In this document: positions 6,105 through 63,800 of the stretch, piece after piece | How positions within the stretch are numbered: position 1 is the first letter of the stretch | How the letters are laid out: the number at the start of each line of letters is the position of its first letter | Assembly (NCBI GenBank): GCA_963790535.1 | Contig: CAWBOZ010000008.1 | Coordinates: 55,591-119,590 of the forward strand | DNA from: an uncultured Alphaproteobacteria bacterium | Lineage (GTDB): Bacteria; Pseudomonadota; Alphaproteobacteria; Acetobacterales; Acetobacteraceae | Length of the DNA: 64,000 nt | Direction: 5' to 3' | The notes under the pieces: generated by a model | Database searches by the model: none | Told to the model about the DNA's origin: nothing | Seen by the model: only the letters and a program-made list of their open reading frames with translations | Position numbers and translations under genes: made by a program

Positions 6105-6500
6105 ATGATTCAGGGTGGATGCCATTGCGGTGCAATCCAGTTCGAAATGCCAGACCAGGTCGCGCACAGCACAATCTGTTATTGCAACGGCTGTCGTAGG
6201 CAGTCTGGAACCCCACTGTTAGCGTGGGCTATGGTCCCCGCAGCTTCAGTGATCATACGGGGCGAGCCTAAGGTTTACGCCTCTTCGGAAAGCGGACGCC
6301 GCTCCTTCTGCGGCGCCTGCGGCACCGGGCTGTTCTTTACAAACGCGGTCCTCGTTCAGATGGGCATGATGCAGGTGCGGATCGCGACACTCGACGATCC
6401 CGATGCGATATCTCCCAAGCTGCAGGTACAAACTGCTGAGGAGATCGGCTGGATGAAGTCCGCGCATATGCTTCCAGCTGTCGAACGTTTCCCATCGTAG
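6105..6500 (+). CDS. GFA (glutathione-dependent formaldehyde-activating / CENP-V) family protein
   Basis: MIQGGCHCGAIQFE...YCNGCRRQSG...FCGACGTGLFF Zn-Cys motifs; RBS GAAGGGG lies 7 nt upstream of ATG 6105. Confidence 0.8.
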   Translation: MIQGGCHCGAIQFEMPDQVAHSTICYCNGCRRQSGTPLLAWAMVPAASVIIRGEPKVYASSESGRRSFCGACGTGLFFTNAVLVQMGMMQVRIATLDDPDAISPKLQVQTAEEIGWMKSAHMLPAVERFPS

Positions 6501-6631
6501 GTCTAAAGTCGTAGGTAACCGTCCGGCAAACGACCGTTGGCCGGCCACGCCCAGTCTGTCCGCCAACCCTGGCGCGCGCACGGGAAAGCGGACACGATGA
6601 TTGCCGGACGGGAAAACGGACATGGACGCCC

Positions 6632-6727
6632 ATGGCCTATGTTGGCTACGCGCGGGTGAACACGCTGGACCAGCTCGCGCCGCCAAGTGGCCCTTTGTTA
6701 CAGAAATGTTGGCTCAGGGCCCGGTAG
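6632..6727 (+). pseudogene. serine recombinase (resolvase/invertase) N-terminal remnant, 31 codons
   Basis: MAYVGYARVNTLDQ resembles the resolvase N-terminus (M..IGYARVST..Q) with the catalytic Ser position reading N. It then degenerates and stops at TAG 6725-6727. Confidence 0.45.
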
Positions 6728-6813
6728 GGCGCCATAGCCGATCTCGCGAGCAAAGCACTGGAACAGGCAGAGCGCATCGGGCGTAAGAGCGTCAGCATGA
6801 AGGAGACCAGGCG

Positions 6814-6990
6814 TTGGGACAGGATAGCAGCGGCTCGGGTCGGCAGCTCATCGCGGCGTGCATCGTCATCGCGGTGATCGTGGTGGCCGGCCTGTGGCTC
6901 TCGGGCGTTCTTCACCAGACCGGCAGCGTGCAGGATTGCGCGATGAGCGGACGCACGAATTGCGCGCCGATCGAGGCTCCGGCGCGCTGA
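6814..6990 (+). CDS. hypothetical small single-pass membrane protein (TTG start)
   Basis: AGGAG at 6801-6805 lies 8 nt before TTG 6814. 58 codons: GQDSSGSGRQLIAACIVIAVIVVAGLWLSGVLHQTGSVQDCAMSGRTNCAPIEAPAR. Below the track length cut-off. Confidence 0.3.
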   Translation: MGQDSSGSGRQLIAACIVIAVIVVAGLWLSGVLHQTGSVQDCAMSGRTNCAPIEAPAR

Positions 6991-7001
6991 ACCTTCCCTA
7001 A

Positions 7002-8104
7002 GAGGCTGTTAAGAAATTAAAGTATAGGCGAGAGGCCTCATGCGCGACTATCCATTGGAGTATACGTCTGAGCCAATCACTTTATATCAACCTGGCTGCT
7101 CCAGTAAGGCTTTCGTAGCGGAGTTGTATTGTTGTAGTTAACGCGGGCGTGGTAGCTGCTAATTTTCAGCCCGTGGGAGCAGGACTTCGGGAACCTTATT
7201 GGCCTCCAGCCAGCCTGCGCAGCGTGACGCGCGCCATGGCGGCATACAGCAGCATCTCCGCCGTCGCGATCAGGCGCTCGTAGTCCCGGCTGATGCGTCG
7301 GTTGCGACCCAACCAGGCCAGTGTCCGCTCCACCACCCACCTTCGCTTGAGCACGTGGAAGCCACGCGGGATCTCGGGCGGCTGCTGGCGGGGGTGACCC
7401 ACACGCCGTGCAGCCCCGTCCACCAGTGCTTGCTGATCACGAGCGCCCAGCCCAGCGTCGTGGCCAGCCAGGACTGCAGCCCTTGGTAGGCGGTATCGGC
7501 CCAGATAAGCACGATGTGCGGGAACTCCGCCTTGAGGCCCGCAAGCAGCAACTCGGCGCCGCGCCGGTCATGGATGTCGGCAGGATGCACGCAGGCCTTG
7601 AGCAGTGTGCCTTCGGTGTCCACGAGCACGTGGCGCTTGCGCCCGGAGACCTTCTTGCCCCCATCATACCCACGCGGCCCTCCAGAACTCGGTGGTCCGT
7701 GCGGACTGGCTGTCGATGATCGCCGCCGTGGGTTGGGCCTTGCGGCGGAGGCGACGCGATAGCGCTGCGCAGGCTGGTGTTGATCTGCTCCCAGGTGCCC
7801 TGATGGCGCCACTTGGCGTAGTGATAGAACACGCTGGGCCAAGGTGGATACTCGTGCGGCAGGGCTCGCCACTGACATCCGGTGCGCAGCAGGTAGAACA
7901 CCGCGTCCAAGATGCAGCGCAGCTCAAGCACCTGCGGGTGGCCGGCCTGCTTGCCGGGTGTAATGAGGGGTGTCAAGATGGCCCATTCCTCATCGCTCAG
8001 GTCGGAGGGTAAGGGTGAGTATTCATCCACCGAAGATGGCTACAGAAGCCGGCAAAACGATGCTTCCTGCACGAGTTTTGCGCAATAAAATTGCTCAACA
8101 GCTC
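7002..8104 (-). mobile_element. IS5-family element, IS1031-group-like, copy L (1103 bp), decayed
   Basis: Terminal inverted repeats GAGGCTGTTAAGAAAT (7002) and rc GAGCTGTTGAGCAAT (8104). Flanked by direct TAA at 6999-7001 and 8105-8107. About 90% similar by eye to copy R in inverted orientation. Confidence 0.85.
7196..8030 (-). pseudogene. IS5-family DDE transposase (DUF4096 N-terminus plus DDE_Tnp_1), split over 4 frames
   Basis: Pieces: SDLSDEEWAILTPLITPGKQAGHPQ..LRTGCQWRALP, then RKAQPTAAIIDSQSARTTE, then GYDGGKKVSGRKRHVLVDTEG..ADTAYQG, then [31 protein letters not shown]. Several 1-nt deletions relative to copy R, plus GAACTC at 7685-7690. Confidence 0.85.
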
Positions 8105-9191: not shown

Positions 9192-11673
9192 GAGGACGTC
9201 GGTTGATACCCCTTTCCAGAACCCGGCAGAGGGGGGTTTAGTCGAGATCGAGGTCACTGATCCCGGACACCCGCTCTTCGGTCGGCGGTTCCCGTTGGTG
9301 TCGGTGAGCAGGCCGCACGTGGTCAGCGGCGGCCAGGTTCTCGTCGCCCACCAGGGCCGCATGCTGCTGAAGCTGCCGGTCGCGGCGACGAGCCTTGTTC
9401 CTCGGCTACCTGACGGAGGGCTGAGCAAGCTCACCGCCGAGGCAGTGGCGGAGCTGGTCACCTTGGCCGAGGACAGCGGGGTGGTGGCATGCTTGTCCGA
9501 CCCGAACGCGTCTGGGGACGCGCGCCCGAGACGCTCCGGCGCGAGATCGCCGAGAACGTCGCAGCACTCCTCGCGGAGGTGATCCATGAGATCGGAACTC
9601 ATCGACGACCGCCACCTCGCGCGGCGTGCCGTCATCTACATCCGCCAGTCCACGCCGCAGCAGGTGCTCACCAACCAGGAGAGCCTGCGCCTGCAGTATG
9701 ACCTGCGCCGGCGCGCCCTCGATCTCGGCTGGCGCGAGGAGGATCTCGAGGTGATCGACACCGACCTCGGCCTGAGTGGGGCGGCGGCCGCGCACCGGGA
9801 GGGCTTCAAGGACCTGATCGCGCGCGTCACGCTGGGCCAGGTCGGCATCGTGCTCTCCTCCGAGGTGACCCGCCTCAGTCGGAACTGCACGGATTGGTAT
9901 CCGCTGCTGGATCTGTGCGGCTACCGGCAATGCCTCATCGGTGATCGCGACGGCGTGTACGATCCGGGCTCCGCGAATGGGCGGCTTCTTCTTGGCCTCA
10001 AGGGCACGATCTCCGAGATGGAGCTGCACACCATCCGTGCTCGCCTGACCGCTGGCCTGCTGAACAAGGCCGAGCGCGGCGAACTCGGCCTCATGCTGCC
10101 GGTGGGCTTGATCCGCGAGGTGGGCGGCGTGGTGGTCAAGGATCCCGACCGTGAGGTGCAGGCCCGCCTCGAACTGATCTTCGCGACCTTCCTGCGGGTC
10201 CGTTCCGCAGCCCAGGTGCTGCGCAGCCTCAACGAGGGCGGCTTGACCCTCCCGCGCCGCGGCCGCCTCGGCAACACGGTCTGGCGCCCGCCGACCGTCG
10301 CGGCGGTGCTACGTGTGCTCAAGAACCCCGCCTACGCCGGGTGCTTCGTCTACGGTCGCACGCGGTCGATCCGCGATGCTTCGGCGACATCCAGGACAAT
10401 GAGGCTTCCCCGCGAGCAGTGGAGGATCGTCGTGAGGGACAAATACCCCGCCTACGTCAGCTGGGAGACGTTCGAGAAGATCCAGGCCATGCTGGGTGAC
10501 AACTACGCCGAGTATGATCGCAACAAGACGCGCGGCATACCGCGCGACGGCGAGGCGCTGCTGCACGGCATCGTCTATTGCGGCGCGTGCGGCCACAAGA
10601 TGGTCGTGCAATACAGGGGCGGCACGCGCTATCTCTGCAACTACCTGCGCCAGCAGCACGGCACGCCCGTATGCCAGAGCATCTTGGCTGGCCCGATCGA
10701 CGCCGAAGCGGTCGCCGCGTTCTTCAAGGCGCTCGCGCCGGCCGAGTTGGACGCCTACGCGCGGGCTGTGGCGACCCGACGCGAGGCGGACGATGCGACG
10801 TTGCGGGCCCAGGCGCAGCAGGTCGAGCGGCTGCGCTACCGGGCAGCATTGGCCGAGCGCCAATACGACCAGATCGACCCGGATAACCGTCTGGTCGCGG
10901 CCGAGCTGGAGCGCCGCTGGGAAGAGACGCTGCGCGACCTGCGGCAGTCCGAAGCGGCTCTGGCCAAGGCGCGAGCGGAAGTTGGCGAGGCCCCGGTCAC
11001 GATCGATGACAAGCTCCGGGCGGCGTTCGCCGACGCTGGCCGGCGACTACCAGAGCTATGGCACGGTTCGGTTCTGACGACGGCGCGAAAGAAGGCCTTG
11101 CTGCGCTGCCTGCTCGACAAGGTCGTGATCCACCGTGCCGCGCCGGACACCATCCACATGCGCCTTGTCTGGCGCGGCGGTGATGCCAGCGCGCTCAATG
11201 TACCCGTGGCGGTCGGCTCGCTCGCCGCGCTGTCGCGGCACGAAGAGATGGAGGCGCGTATCCTCGAACTCGCGCGCGCCGGCCACGGCGACGCGGCGGT
11301 CGCCGCCGAGCTGACCGCTGCCGGGCACCGCTCGCCGATGCGCGACCGGGTGCTGCCGAGCACGGTGCAGATCATCCGGCTGCGGCACGGCGTCCTGCTG
11401 AAGCGAAACCAGTCGCACCCGCGGCACGTGCCTGGGCATCTGACCATCCCGCAACTCGCGGCTCAGCTCGGGGTGAGCGCGCACTGGATCTATGATCGTA
11501 TCCACAACGGCACCATCGCGGTCACACGCGATGAGTGCACCGGTCTATACCTGTTCCCCGGTGAGCCTGGCACCCTGAAGGGGTTACGGAAACTCCGCGA
11601 TGGCGAGTTGGATCGGATCGCATTCGACACAGAAATGGGTTCTTGAGGAGGGTAGCAAGATGCATGATCGAAC
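9192..11673 (+). mobile_element. cargo-less large-serine-recombinase element (2482 bp) inserted in the IS630 transposase gene
   Basis: IS630 coding sequence stops at ..CCTGGAAC (9191) and resumes at AAGCTCGTCGATCAACCCTGG (11674). GAAC occurs at both junctions (9188-9191 and 11670-11673). Boundaries are ambiguous within those 4 nt. Confidence 0.6.
9586..11646 (+). CDS. large serine recombinase (resolvase domain plus recombinase domain plus zinc ribbon plus coiled coil)
   Basis: 686 aa. RAVIYIRQSTPQQ holds the catalytic Ser; also SSEVTRLSRN, GLKGTISEMELHTIRARL, and CGACGHKMVVQYRGGTRYLC..C zinc ribbon. Long Ala/Arg/Glu-rich helical region. Confidence 0.9.
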   Translation: MRSELIDDRHLARRAVIYIRQSTPQQVLTNQESLRLQYDLRRRALDLGWREEDLEVIDTDLGLSGAAAAHREGFKDLIARVTLGQVGIVLSSEVTRLSRNCTDWYPLLDLCGYRQCLIGDRDGVYDPGSANGRLLLGLKGTISEMELHTIRARLTAGLLNKAERGELGLMLPVGLIREVGGVVVKDPDREVQARLELIFATFLRVRSAAQVLRSLNEGGLTLPRRGRLGNTVWRPPTVAAVLRVLKNPAYAGCFVYGRTRSIRDASATSRTMRLPREQWRIVVRDKYPAYVSWETFEKIQAMLGDNYAEYDRNKTRGIPRDGEALLHGIVYCGACGHKMVVQYRGGTRYLCNYLRQQHGTPVCQSILAGPIDAEAVAAFFKALAPAELDAYARAVATRREADDATLRAQAQQVERLRYRAALAERQYDQIDPDNRLVAAELERRWEETLRDLRQSEAALAKARAEVGEAPVTIDDKLRAAFADAGRRLPELWHGSVLTTARKKALLRCLLDKVVIHRAAPDTIHMRLVWRGGDASALNVPVAVGSLAALSRHEEMEARILELARAGHGDAAVAAELTAAGHRSPMRDRVLPSTVQIIRLRHGVLLKRNQSHPRHVPGHLTIPQLAAQLGVSAHWIYDRIHNGTIAVTRDECTGLYLFPGEPGTLKGLRKLRDGELDRIAFDTEMGS

Positions 11674-56559: not shown

Positions 56560-57159
56560 ATGGGCATCCAGCTCCCGCCTAGCGGCACCCCGGCGCTGCT
56601 CCGCATCACGGCAGAACAGCTCGAAACCATGGCGGCGCGGGGCGCCTTCGACTTTCTGCCGCGCGTCGAACTGCGCGAAGGCTTGCTCTACCAAATGAAC
56701 CCGCAGCACTTCCCGCACGGCATCGCGAAAGCCGACGTGACCGAGGCCCTGGTCGCTGCGTTGACACGCCTGAACCTCTCCTTACGCGTCCTCTCCGAAG
56801 TTTCGGTCCGCGTGAGTGAAACCGAGGTGCCGATGCCGGACGTCTCCCTCGTGCGGCGCGCTCGCTATCCCGCTGCCGTCCCGGTCGAGCACGTTCGGCT
56901 CGCAGTCGAGATTTCTGACACCACGCTCGCCGACGATCTTGGCCGCAAGCGCACCCTATACGCTCTCGGCGGCATCCCCGAATACTGGGTCGTTGACCTC
57001 TCTGCGCGCGTGATCTCCCAGCACTGGTCGCCAGATGGCGGTACTTACGCGAAGTCGGCCGTCGTGCCGTTCGGTGACGACATCGCGTCGGCGACGCTGC
57101 CAGGGTTGGTCACTCCGACGGCCGCGCTCCGTGACGACAGCGACGATGGCCTCACATAG
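56560..57159 (+). CDS. Uma2-family (DUF820) putative endonuclease
   Basis: PMPDVSLV..LAVEISDTTLADDLGRKRTLYALGGIPEYWVVDL. Confidence 0.75.
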   Translation: MGIQLPPSGTPALLRITAEQLETMAARGAFDFLPRVELREGLLYQMNPQHFPHGIAKADVTEALVAALTRLNLSLRVLSEVSVRVSETEVPMPDVSLVRRARYPAAVPVEHVRLAVEISDTTLADDLGRKRTLYALGGIPEYWVVDLSARVISQHWSPDGGTYAKSAVVPFGDDIASATLPGLVTPTAALRDDSDDGLT

Positions 57160-59667: not shown

Positions 59668-59730
59668 TTGCTTCGCCGCGAGGTGATGCGCTAGCGTTCC
59701 CTCCCCAAGCAGGAACAGGAGGCAAGCGCG

Positions 59731-61230
59731 ATGAGCTCGCACGCGACGGGAGACCCCGGCGGAGGCACCGCCTGGGGACCGCACAACACGGTGACGGTGG
59801 TGGACCCGTCCCCGGTGAACTGGCTGTCCATCACCTGGAACACCATGGAAGAGGCAGACCGGGTTGACTACGAGGGCATCGGCCAGCCCAGCCTCGCCGC
59901 CGGGTGGAAATGGGTTGACGACGAGACTCTCGAACTCGACCTGCGCCGCGATGCCGTGTTCCAGGACGGCGAGAAGTATGACGCGAAGCTGTTCAAGCTC
60001 GCGTTCGACAAGGTGCAGGAGTGGACCAACCCGCATCCGCCGGGCGCCTTCCTGAACTTCGCGCGCGACACCGAGCTGCAAGTCGTTGACGACTACACGG
60101 TGCGGATGCGCTTCCCCGGCGGCGACTCCGCGGCGCTGATGAAGCTGCGCGGGATGCACATCCCGTCCACGCGCTTCTGGAACGAGTGGGGCTTCATAGA
60201 TCCCGAGACGGGGTCCGCCGAAGGCCATTGGTGAGTTATTGATGCGCCCGGTCCGTGGGGGACTGGCCCATTCGTGCTTGCCGACGGCATCTCGACGCTG
60301 AAGACCCGTTCGCCCCAGGTCGTGATGGAGCCGAACGAGACCTATTGGAACCCGGACCGCAAGCCGGCGGTGCGGATCATCTACGACAACGCCATCTTCA
60401 AGGACGATGCGATCCGCTCCGTGGCGAGCGGCGACGGCAAGATCGACGTGGTTATGGACCTGAACGTGGACGAGGCCCGCGCCTTCAACGGCAACGGCAA
60501 CGGGAAGCTCCAGACGCAGCCTGCCAAGACGGTGCTGGTTGGTTTGTTCAACGAGAACAAGCCGAACTCGCCGTGGCGCGATCCCGAGCTGCGCCGGGCG
60601 ATGAACCTGGCGCTGGATCGGCAGATGATCCTCGACAAGGGTGCCGACGGCTACGGCATGGTCATGCCGGCGTTCATCCAGCCGGGCCGCTACGGCGCCG
60701 ACCCGGCGATGAAGGCCTACGCGCTCGACGTGCAGAAGGCCTTGGGCACGATCGAGGGCGCCAACATTCCGGGCAAGGAGATCGTGATCTTCTCAGGCCC
60801 GGACTGGAAAGGGGTCGTCGAGGCGGTCGCGGAGTGCCTGCAGAGGGTCGGCCTCAAGGTGAAGCCGATCTACGGCAAAGAGGACCCGCCAGACTGGGAC
60901 ATCAAGCTCGTCTGGCACTTCGACTGGTCGCCGCAGTATCCCGTGGGCGTGGTGCATCGCGAGTTCTTCGGGAGCAACGGGGCGCTGCGCGCCTCGCCCG
61001 AGGACGAGCGGTTCGACGCGCTCTACGCGAAGCTGCTGCGGACGCCGCACCAGCCGGAGCAGGAGAACGTCGTCCGCGAGGTCGAACGCTATGTGTTCGA
61101 CGAAGCCAAGGCGCTGTTCCTGTTCTCACCCTACACGCTGTTCGCGGTGAGCGACCGCGTGGAGTTCGTGGCCTACGACACCTGCATGTCGGAGTTGGCC
61201 GAGACCAAGATCCGGTCGAAGCCCGCCTAG
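59731..61230 (+). CDS. leaderless family-5 (SBP_bac_5) solute-binding-like protein with one in-frame TGA at 60232-60234 (candidate Sec codon, or nonsense)
   Basis: Track ORFs 59731..60234 and 60274..61230 share a frame. Read-through gives ..DPETGSAEGHW[TGA]VIDAPGPWGTGPFVLADG... AGGAGG lies 8 nt before ATG 59731, and an in-frame TAG at 59692 excludes a longer N-terminus. Confidence 0.6.
60248..60266 (+). promoter_or_regulatory. SECIS-like hairpin candidate 13 nt downstream of the in-frame UGA
   Basis: CCGGUCC-GUGGG-GGACUGG: 7 bp including one G-U, pentaloop starting GU, loop begins 20 nt after the UGA. A possible lower helix pairs 60241-60246 with 60268-60272. Confidence 0.35.
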
Positions 61231-61306
61231 ACGTGCGACGCGAGCGATGCCGGGGGTTCAGCCCTCGGCACCGCGAGCGCCCTGCCCTACCAAGGTGCGG
61301 CCAGCG

Positions 61307-63232
61307 ATGATCGTGGCGACCGCCGGCCACATAGACCACGGCAAGACGGCGCTCGTGAAGGCGCTCACCGGCACCGACGCCGACCGGTTGCCGGAGGAGA
61401 AGAGCCGCGGCATCACGATAGACCTCGGCTTCGCCTATCTCCGGCTGCCCGGCGGCGGATCGGTCGGGTTCGTGGACGTGCCGGGCCACGAGCGGCTGGT
61501 CCGCACGATGCTGGCCGGCGCCGGCGGCGTGGATTTCGCCCTCCTCGTCGTCGCTGCCGATGACGGCGTGATGCCGCAGACGCTTGAGCACCTCGCCATT
61601 CTCGACCTTCTAGGCGTGCGCAGAGGCATCGTCGCGCTGACCAAGGCCGACCGCGTGGACAGCGCACGGATCGCGGAGGTCACGGCCGAGATCCAGGACC
61701 TCCTGCACGGCACTGCGCTGCAGGGCGCCCCGGTCCTGCCATGCTCCAGCCTCACGGGCGAGGGTATCCCGGAGATCGCCCGGCACCTGCACGAGGCCGC
61801 ATCCGGCACGCGCGAGCGGGCCGTTGCCGGACGCTTCCGCCTCGCGGTGGACCGCAGCTTCACGCTGCCCGGCGTCGGCTTGGTCGTCACTGGCACCGTC
61901 CACGCGGGCCGGGTGAGCGTGGGCGACCGCCTCCTGCTCTCCCCCGCGGGCGTCGAGGTGCGCGTGCGTGGGCTGCACACGCAGAACGAGGCGGCCGCGA
62001 GCGGCGTGGCCGGGCAGCGCTGCGCGCTCAACCTGACGGGCGCGCGCCTCGACAAGGACGGCATCAAGCGGGGCGACTGGATCGTCGCCCCCGAGCTTCA
62101 CGCGCCCACGGCCCGGCTCGACGTGCGGCTGCGGCTCCTCCGCTCCGAGGCCCACGCGCTGCGCCACTGGACGCCCGTGCACCTGCACCTCGGCGCCGCG
62201 AGCGTGACCGGGCGCGTGTCGCTGCTCGGGAGCCGGGCCTTGGCACCTGGGGAAGGGACGCTCGCGCAGATCGTGCTCGACGCACCCATCGGCGCCCTCT
62301 CGGGAGACCGCTTCGTCGTCCGTGACGCCTCGGCCCAGCGCACGATGGGGGGCGGCAGCGTCCTCGACCCGTTCCCGCCGCGCCGCGGCAGCCGCAGGCC
62401 CGAGCGTGAAATCGTTCTCGCCGCCCTCGGCCGTGAAAGCCACGAGGATGCGCTACGGGCGCTCCTGCAGGCGGAGCCGGCCGGGAGCGCCCTCGACCGC
62501 TTCCAGCTCGCGCGCAACCTCGGCGATGCAGAGATGAAGGCGCTGTTCGCCGCGTGCAATCTTGTCGAGGTGGCGCTCCCACGGCAGCGCCTGGGCTTCA
62601 CCGCGTCGCGCTGGGGCGAGATCAAGGCTGACCTGCTCGAAGCGCTCGCGCGCCATCACGCGCTCAACCCGGATACTTGGGGCGCGACGGCCGAGGAGCT
62701 TGCGGACACCGTTCCATCTTCGCTGCGGCCGGCCGTGATGGCCGCGGTAAAGGCGCTGGCCGAGGACCGCGCGATCCGGCGCACGGGCCAGTTGCTTCAC
62801 CTCCCCGGCCGCGAGATCCGCCTCGCGCCAGCGGACGAGAGCCTCTGGGGAGAGATCCGCGTCGTGCTGGAAGCGGCCAGCCTCGATCCCCTGCGCGTCA
62901 CCGTCTTGGCGGAGCGGCTTGGCCTGGACGAGGAGAAGGTCAGGCCGCTGCTCGACAAGCTCGGCCGCATCGGCTGGCTGTGCCGGGCGTCGCGTTCCTA
63001 CTATCTCCTGCCGGACGTGGTGGCACAGCTAGCCATGCAGGCACGGCGCGTCGCGGAGGAGCACCCCGCGCGGCTCCTCACGGTCGGGCATTTCCGCGAG
63101 GCGACCGGCATCAGCCGGCACGCGACGATGCCGGTCCTGGAGCTCCTCGACCGGGTGGGCTTCACGAGACGGGTCAACGAAGGGCGGGAGATACGGGAGG
63201 GCTGGTCGGAGGTCTTCTCCCTCGCGGGGTGA
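61307..63232 (+). CDS. selB: selenocysteine-specific translation elongation factor
   Basis: ATG 61307 gives [58 protein letters not shown]. Long C-terminal winged-helix extension; 641 aa. Confidence 0.9.
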
Positions 63233-63726: not shown

Positions 63727-63800
63727 GGTAGCGGCGGGCGGATTTGAACCACCGACCAAGGGATTATGATTCCCCTGCTCTACCGCTGAGCTACGCCGCC
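63727..63800 (-). tRNA. tRNA with CAT anticodon (Met or lysidine-modified Ile2)
   Basis: rc: GGCGGCG TA GCTC AGCGGTA GAGC A GGGGA ATCATAA TCCCT TGGTC GGTGG TTCAAAT CCGCC CGCCGCT A CC. Full cloverleaf. The anticodon-arm to T-arm segment resembles remembered E. coli ileX. Confidence 0.85.

Follow-up and report, generated by a model that had tools for sequence, protein, structure and literature searches.

A candidate selenoprotein family with a family-5 substrate-binding protein fold encoded upstream of selB in alphaproteobacteria

Introduction

Substrate-binding proteins (SBPs) that contain selenocysteine (Sec) have been described in the SAO locus, whose SaoB and SaoX are both selenoproteins (Haft and Gwadz, bioRxiv 10.1101/2022.07.06.499078; J Bacteriol 2023). 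Before SaoB, these authors knew of no binding-protein selenoprotein (10.1101/2022.07.06.499078). In an inventory of May 2026 comprising 119 prokaryotic selenoprotein families, SaoB, SaoX and a BtuF-like family are the only binding-protein ones, and none has the SBP_bac_5 domain (PF00496). The usual client encoded beside the Sec genes is the formate dehydrogenase alpha subunit (FdnG/FdoG), and a Roseomonas plasmid displays the usual alphaproteobacterial layout of fdnGHI, fdhE, selA, selB and selD. Here we describe a gene at positions 59731-61230 of a 64-kb stretch of DNA (hereafter the window; contig CAWBOZ010000008.1 of an uncultured member of the Acetobacteraceae) that encodes an SBP_bac_5 protein, contains one in-frame UGA followed by a hairpin resembling a Sec insertion sequence (SECIS), and lies directly ahead of selB. 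This locus and its relatives carry a binding-protein-like gene in place of a Sec-type formate dehydrogenase. Comparison with homologues makes it very likely that the open reading frame (ORF) is one intact gene whose UGA is read as Sec.

Results

A single reading frame interrupted by UGA

The ORF consists of a 500-codon frame, 499 codons followed by a TAG stop at 61228-61230, whose sole internal stop is a TGA in the context ...TGSAEGHW-(TGA)-VIDAPGPWGTGPF (Table 1). Gene callers cut it into fragments of 167 and about 318 residues. A first-pass annotation, made from the letters of the window, had claimed that ORF 59731..60234 and the ORF that follows are in the same frame and parted only by this TGA, and that no indel is needed to explain the break. 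Both statements hold. The two halves match consecutive parts of the SBP_bac_5 profile, positions 3-98 (44 bits) and 115-324 (90 bits), both above the cut-off of 32.4 bits. Concerning the N-terminus, the same annotation had stated that the protein has no signal peptide and that its start is fixed by an upstream TAG and an AGGAGG sequence. We found both elements. The in-frame TAG rules out a longer N-terminus with a signal peptide, and a hydrophobic signal segment is absent from the N-terminal sequence MSSHATGDPGGG..., as judged from the sequence without a signal-peptide predictor. In this the protein differs from the exported SBP_bac_5 proteins of importers.

The next gene was correctly named as selB. 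Its product scored 423 bits against TIGR00475 (cut-off 242) and has the SECIS-binding winged-helix domains. The longest selB ORF begins at 61247; the conserved start, where the alignment with the Roseomonas SelB begins, is 61307, which is 76 nt past the TAG stop of the upstream gene.

Table 1. Coordinates of the gene, its signals and related copies (positions in the window unless a locus is named)
Feature	Position	Strand	Remarks
Single gene	59731..61230	+	499 residues, Sec at residue 168, motif H-W-U-V-I-D; basis: translation, PF00496
UGA codon, inferred decoding as Sec	60232..60234	+	TGA in 55/55 intact homologues
In-frame TAG closing the frame upstream	59692..59694	+	13 codons before ATG 59731; read directly
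Shine-Dalgarno-like AGGAGG	59717..59722	+	8 nt ahead of ATG 59731; read directly
SECIS-like element	60230..60282	+	RNAalifold consensus of 44 sequences
selB	61307..63232	+	Pfam GTP_EFTU, Beta-barrel_SelB, SelB-wing_2, SelB-wing_3; TIGR00475
Clade II copies, locus L059	4868-6472, 10001-11602, 15337-16938, 18596-20197		each TGA-split

Conservation of the UGA across homologues

We fetched 49 loci from species-representative genomes of Methylobacterium, Methylorubrum, Beijerinckiaceae, Lichenihabitans, Acetobacteraceae and Rhodospirillales, of which 47 were usable. The codon before the sequence VIDA[PA]GPWGTGPF was TGA, with an open frame on either side, in 46 of these 47 loci. The lone exception, L038, had TAA at the Sec codon together with a frameshift, and an unrelated sense codon was seen in no orthologue, which supports the selenoprotein reading that had been put forward from the window alone. 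When paralogues and clade II were included, the internal stop was TGA in all 55 intact copies, which fall into three clades; the terminal stops of the same 55 genes were TGA (31), TAG (21) and TAA (3).

Protein databases hold the homologues in two parts, annotated as 'ABC transporter substrate-binding protein'. The best 120 matches to the read-through protein were all C-terminal fragments of 295-333 residues (52-94% identity). With residues 1-220 as query, the best 120 matches were 147-208 residues long and none reached past the N-terminal 167 residues of the query. Nine intact N-terminal fragments that were inspected all terminate at ...W. The fragments on either side of the UGA are conserved at 52-94% identity, and the C-terminal 331 residues are strongly conserved. 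Homologues of the three clades share 40-90% amino-acid identity, and most of their differences are synonymous in both halves, a visible sign of purifying selection. The pattern in which the UGA and the hairpin described below are conserved is far beyond chance, and by this comparison of sequences the UGA at residue 168 is no nonsense mutation.

L038 (7497-9006 with flanks) is the closest relative of the window locus. It has frameshifts in the C-terminal part of the gene and in MlaC, and about 1.2 kb is inserted ahead of selB. This copy seems to be in decay, though errors of long-read assembly are a possible cause of the changes. Two isolated metagenomic members, P0125 and P0341, are read through with Leu (HW-L-VIDAPGPW) or frameshifted just before the Sec position, and are likely to be sequencing errors or dead copies.

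A SECIS-like hairpin with constrained codons

In bacterial SECIS elements, as searched for by programs of the bSECISearch type, the apical loop lies 16-37 nt from the UGA and begins with G or GU. The first-pass annotation had pointed out a 7-bp helix 13 nt past the UGA with a GUGGG loop at 20 nt, consistent with this rule. The helix is present as CCGGTCC (60248-60254) paired with GGACTGG (60260-60266) around the loop GTGGG (60255-60259), and the starts of stem and loop are at the distances given. RNAfold recovered this apical hairpin within a longer stem that includes the UGA. The alignment of clades Ia and Ib (described below) resolves the longer stem into a middle helix of 4 bp (60241-60244 with 60269-60272) and a lower helix of 7 bp (60230-60236 with 60276-60282) that holds the UGA.

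This three-helix hairpin is conserved in all 44 distinct aligned sequences, and the G and U at the start of the loop are invariant. In the alignment, 96.6% of the cells of the structure are paired, against 18-59% in controls in which the 3' partner was slid, and none of 500 shuffles matched either this pairing or the covariation score. On the question of covariation, which had been proposed as a check, we found the hairpin conserved with substitutions that preserve the structure. The pair 60243:60270 (alignment columns 21:48) is C-G in 27 sequences, U-A in 15 and U-G in two; it is never broken and C-A does not occur. Both of its bases are synonymous third positions, of Asp (GAY) and Pro (CCR) codons. 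Wobble-type changes were seen at three pairs. The support that covariation lends to the structure is modest. A covariance model built from the alignment matched the window only at 60223-60300, and elsewhere matched once per gene copy.

The codons of the stem were then compared with codon usage in these genes. Among 18 conserved Gly columns, only two, both located in the stem, are fixed on a single codon, and both codons are minor ones: GGU makes up 12% and GGG 19% of the Gly codons. The partner of the U in GGU is the A of the Thr codon, and that of the last G in GGG is a C of the Pro codon. Pro175 is always CCG, and the loop opens with the third base of this codon, an invariant G. At Thr178 the codon is ACU or ACC, which gives a G-U or G-C pair with the partner base, and never ACG, despite the 50% share of ACG among Thr codons. 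The codon choices in the stem are what pairing requires, and this analysis is the strongest evidence for the hairpin. Only the per-codon analysis was sensitive to the constraint; synonymous diversity in a sliding window of seven codons did not single out the SECIS. A comparison of the apical sequence with the SECIS of Roseomonas fdnG revealed nothing obvious in common.

Three clades and an invariant Trp-Sec motif

The family has at least three clades. Clade Ia, to which the window gene belongs, has no signal peptide and is encoded upstream of selB. Clade Ib has an N-terminus about 25-30 residues longer, with twin-arginine-like signals such as SRRRFSLLATA. In every case examined, a gene for a periplasmic thioredoxin-like (TlpA-like) protein with the motif WC[AI]PC lies just upstream of the clade Ib gene, often together with dsbD. 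Clade II bears a signal or membrane anchor, is very abundant in metagenomes and is sometimes present in several copies. We met clade II through P0188, its single Cys-containing representative. With P0188 as query, 1,220 clusters (90% identity) were found at E <= 1e-10; among the best 120 of the 1,220, nearly all are exactly 173 residues long, and those inspected end in ...GWGE[KR]xW. All five clade II copies examined have TGA at the Sec codon and, equally far past it, a hairpin that differs from that of clades Ia and Ib, GGCCCGUG-GGG-CACGGGCC; the GPWGTG peptide encoded there is the same, with a different choice of codons.

A metagenomic contig of 1.44 Mb (L059, Table 1) carries four clade II copies within 20 kb. 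Between them are toxin-antitoxin and Uma2 genes as well as genes for a cytochrome c and a redoxin of the AhpC/TSA type.

In 24 members drawn from the three clades, the Sec position never varies, and there is no Cys column common to them. The absence of a nearby Cys, raised earlier as a caveat for the window protein, therefore holds for the whole family. Of the H-W-U site that had been read from the window, W-U proved invariant, and the His is missing from the conserved positions of the largest clade. In rare near relatives that are read through, the Sec position is occupied by C, S, W, G, R or L, each of which is one nucleotide away from TGA.

Association with selenocysteine genes

The gene is followed directly by selB in 36 of the 47 loci; in three others selB is found downstream at a distance of no more than 2 kb. 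The two genes are 10-80 nt apart, or overlap, in most loci of clade Ia. A tRNA-Sec gene (selC) was found near selB in 11 loci. It stands directly after selB in L003, L004, L023, L035, L037 and L042 and about 2.4 kb past selB in L033; in L002, L036, L046 and L049 it is in the vicinity. In L003, L004, L023, L035 and L042, selA follows the tRNA-Sec gene. The most complete order, selD, dsbD, tlpA-like gene, exported clade Ib paralogue, signal-less clade Ia paralogue, selB, selC, selA, was observed in L037. In Methylorubrum (L036 and L046), the order is dsbD, a tlpA-like gene and a clade Ib copy, then selC, selA and selB on the opposite strand; selD adjoins in L046. On a megaplasmid of Methylobacterium radiotolerans, the order is a MarR gene, the gene in question and selB.

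A Sec-type formate dehydrogenase was found in none of the loci studied. There is about an even chance that the family is the main client maintaining the Sec trait in these genomes. The flanks of the gene-selB pair vary and include integrase, insertion sequence (IS) and relaxase genes, which fits lateral spread of a two-gene module.

Several observations were made in the course of this survey. The M. radiotolerans NYY1 copy (L056 12001-13482, corresponding to NZ_CP090580.1 278133-279614) is without a coding sequence (CDS) in the PLSDB table, which passes over the locus tags RS29210 and RS29215, so that annotation as a pseudogene is probable. About 10 kb upstream on the same megaplasmid, fdhF is of the Cys type at its catalytic position. 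In L055, an ORF of 243 residues (6464-7195, +) comprises only the C-terminal SECIS-binding winged-helix part of SelB, and is very similar to the C-terminus of the window SelB. Its neighbours are dsbD, a tlpA-like gene and the exported paralogue; it may be what is left of a selB gene, or else a protein that binds SECIS elements by itself. In the window itself, a tRNA-Met gene (63727-63800, -) lies about 500 nt past selB; several relatives have tRNA-Sec directly behind selB instead.

Fold of the predicted protein

The closest proteins in the PDB by sequence were AccA (E = 1e-15) and NikA (E = 1e-11). In a Foldseek search of the PDB, the AlphaFold model (mean pLDDT, the predicted local distance difference test, 76; above 90 in the C-terminal half) matched only cluster C (family 5) binding proteins, namely CtaP, AppA, AccA, NikA, GsiB/YliB, GbpA, CntA and DppA. 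The alignment behind the model consisted of 39 C-terminal fragments and 4 bridging sequences. Sec sits nine residues ahead of the GTGP motif, which we take, from what is known of DppA, to mark the crossover between domains II and I. The window product would be a cytoplasmic protein of 499 residues that combines a W-U site with the SBP fold of family 5. Next to the gene, neither the window nor L036, L050-L056, L059 and L060 have permease or ATPase genes of the Opp/Dpp type; the family is not part of an ATP-binding cassette (ABC) importer.

Other features of the window

Upstream of the gene are genes for MlaC, MlaA, MTHFR and UvrD. An ORF of the Uma2 family (putative, restriction-endonuclease-like) at 56560-57159 (+) separates uvrD from the MTHFR gene. 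That the clade II copies in L059 are likewise flanked by Uma2 genes is probably a coincidence. A large serine recombinase with Resolvase, Recombinase and zinc-ribbon domains is encoded at 9586-11643 (+), which hints at a mobile element elsewhere in the window.

Discussion

Evidence for and against decoding as selenocysteine

The reading of UGA 60232-60234 as Sec rests on an identical codon in every intact homologue, on a hairpin whose codons are held to what pairing requires, and on the proximity of sel genes. A number of results weigh against it. Within the 64-kb window, selB is the sole sel gene; selC, selA, selD and a formate dehydrogenase gene were not found there, and tRNA-Sec was not detected anywhere in it. 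Cys homologues are almost absent, the one case being P0188 within clade II. In distant full-length relatives (25-37% identity) the residue after the conserved Trp is mostly Gly, not Cys; in 75 representative homologues spanning the Sec site, 28 had a gap, eight had Gly and one had Cys there. This scarcity of Cys homologues, with Gly mostly in their stead, may be the reason why screens for Cys/Sec pairs missed the family. With regard to the protein, residues 140-178, Sec included, have pLDDT values below 50 because the N-terminal alignment was shallow.

The remaining points concern the hairpin. A fully compensatory change was seen at only one stem pair among the 44 sequences, and their effective diversity is low, model R1 having 1.73 effective sequences. 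No SECIS family of Rfam was matched, either at gathering scores over the window or at E <= 10 over 60180-60340. The folding energy did not differ significantly from that of shuffled sequences (z = -1.24). Nor was the native energy better than that of synonymous recodings in seven family members, the fraction of recodings at least as stable being 0.08-0.85; any encoding of this G+C-rich peptide folds. The stability of the hairpin was accordingly dropped as evidence after the shuffle and recoding tests. As the energy and Rfam tests were negative, the case for the hairpin depends on its specific conserved shape and not on its stability.

Alternative explanations

One possibility is that the UGA and SECIS act mainly as a sensor of selenium or SelB that sets selB transcription or translation, whether through titration of SelB or through polarity and termination; the full-length product would then be secondary. 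The position of selB in most clade Ia loci, directly downstream or overlapping, would suit such a role, and precedents have been described. A SECIS-like element in the leader of E. coli selAB represses translation (Thanbichler and Bock 2002, as cited in PMC8124441), and PMC3892789 reports selenium-dependent translational uncoupling downstream of the Sec-UGA in fdhF of Treponema primitia. However, the UGA and a hairpin persist in clades Ib and II, where selB is missing downstream or is encoded on the opposite strand, and the long C-terminal part is strongly conserved. Regulation may therefore be an added layer and cannot be the main reason for the element, and we regard a mainly regulatory role as very unlikely.

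Another explanation is a truly split gene, in which the UGA is a real stop and parts of 167 and about 330 residues, the second produced by re-initiation, assemble afterwards. In some homologues gene callers do place a start codon soon past the stop, GTG being present in 16 of 41 unique sequences, but the codon following the TGA is GTC, which is not a start codon, in 24 of the 41, and neither a start nor a ribosome-binding site is conserved after the TGA. The internal stop is always TGA, unlike the terminal stops of the same genes, and the break falls just ahead of the conserved GPWGTGPF, within the span of a single SBP_bac_5 profile. Two assembling parts would also leave the fixed minor codons and the adjacency of selB, selC, selA and selD unexplained. 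Taken together, these points make a split gene highly unlikely.

The first-pass annotation had retained a plain nonsense change as a caveat. In such a pseudogene the hairpin would be incidental, and the TAA and frameshift of the close relative L038, the apparent treatment of the M. radiotolerans copy by RefSeq as non-CDS, and the hairpin energy all agree with this. On the other hand, an identical TGA codon persists in all 55 intact homologues, which span three clades, both halves are visibly under purifying selection, nearly all of the best 120 among more than 1,200 clade II clusters end at the Sec residue, and the genes are linked to sel genes. By sequence comparison, a pseudogene is effectively refuted and has hardly any probability left. 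Decoding of the UGA as Gly or Trp by a near-cognate tRNA or a suppressor is likewise extremely unlikely, for although Gly is common at this position in distant homologues, the genetic code of alphaproteobacteria is the standard one, Gly, if wanted, would be encoded more simply by GGA, and such decoding accounts neither for the SelB-type hairpin with its invariant loop-start G-U nor for the presence of selB, selC, selA and selD close by.

Proposed mechanism and function

Returning to Sec decoding, we propose that the mRNA just 3' of the UGA folds into a bacterial-type SECIS, in which the apical stem would stand on two lower helices that include the UGA. SelB from the next gene, probably co-transcribed, would bind the hairpin and deliver Sec-tRNA(Sec). 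Binding of the hairpin by SelB and insertion of Sec are highly probable.

The role of the resulting selenol is more tentative. It may be a redox-active or ligand-capturing residue on an orphan binding-protein scaffold, a function in redox or capture being possible without being the likelier case. Since no resolving Cys is present, we propose that the selenol would be kept reduced, or recycled, by external thiols, thioredoxin or glutathione in the cytoplasm and a DsbD-fed TlpA-like protein in the periplasm. For clade Ib, we infer an interaction with the redoxin from gene order only. The placement of selB behind the Sec-UGA might couple selB expression to selenium supply; by analogy with known systems this is conceivable and rather doubtful. 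In the islands of the type selD...selB-selC-selA, the periplasmic and cytoplasmic paralogues might not be ordinary clients, and instead constitute a dedicated system for capture and hand-over of selenium, which we consider improbable. In that event the selenol would bind selenium species via Se-Se or Se-S bonds and hand them towards SelD, and could also gate selB expression by selenium status.

If confirmed, the family would be a large and previously unrecognised selenoprotein family (more than 1,200 clusters from the clade II query alone), with a fold so far unconnected to Sec and occurring in aerobic alphaproteobacteria associated with plants, lichens and soil, such as Methylobacterium. Its existence would explain why selB, selC, selA and selD are retained without an adjoining Sec-type formate dehydrogenase, and would correct a systematic mis-annotation as two SBP fragments or a pseudogene. 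The exported form, with its dedicated TlpA-like redoxin and DsbD, presents a directly testable redox partnership.

Comparison with known systems

NCBIfam 20.0 has no dedicated model for the family. We found nothing on a family-5 binding-protein selenoprotein in the literature, in which Haft and Tolstoy (2025, mSystems) was covered through the table of a 2026 review citing it. The authors of deep-Sep remarked that current methods may miss selenoproteins without Cys homologues, a remark that fits this family, which exposes a blind spot of screens for Cys/Sec pairs. The first-pass annotation had known of no selenoprotein family with this fold. SaoB, SaoX and the BtuF-like proteins are such binding proteins, and the statement stands in so far as they belong to different binding-protein families.

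SaoB and SaoX resemble the family in their binding-protein fold, in-frame UGA and appearance as two database fragments, and their Sec has been proposed to contact the ligand. They differ in the binding-protein family to which they belong, whose relatives are 3VVE and 4ZV2, two amino-acid binders; in their CU or UxP motifs; and in occurring in strict anaerobes, where they are encoded with their own ABC permease and ATPase. The family described here has an SBP_bac_5 domain and a W-U motif without partner Cys, is found in aerobic alphaproteobacteria without transporter genes, and is linked to sel genes, a TlpA-like redoxin and DsbD. The SaoB/SaoX models NF040727 and NF040735 (NCBIfam 20.0) were not matched by the window protein.

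FdnG/FdoG shares with clade Ib its export by the twin-arginine route. As a molybdopterin enzyme it is otherwise unrelated; its motif is UHxP, and homologues with Cys are numerous. NikA, AccA, CtaP, GsiB and GbpA of cluster C have the same fold as the window protein, with only 15-21% identity, and differ in being exported components of ABC importers without Sec; against the NikA equivalog TIGR02294, the window protein scored 68.9 bits, far below the cut-off of 393. TlpA and DsbD constitute a periplasmic reductive pathway, in which TlpA reduces, for example, ScoI and CoxB in Bradyrhizobium. The likeness to clade Ib lies in a DsbD-fed periplasmic CxxC thioredoxin-like protein encoded beside its presumed reduction target, and the difference is that the presumed substrate here is a selenol on an SBP scaffold, not a Cys pair on a copper chaperone. 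In relation to all of these systems, the recoding mechanism is already known, and the novelty lies in the protein family, in the absence of Cys counterparts and in its partnership with sel genes.

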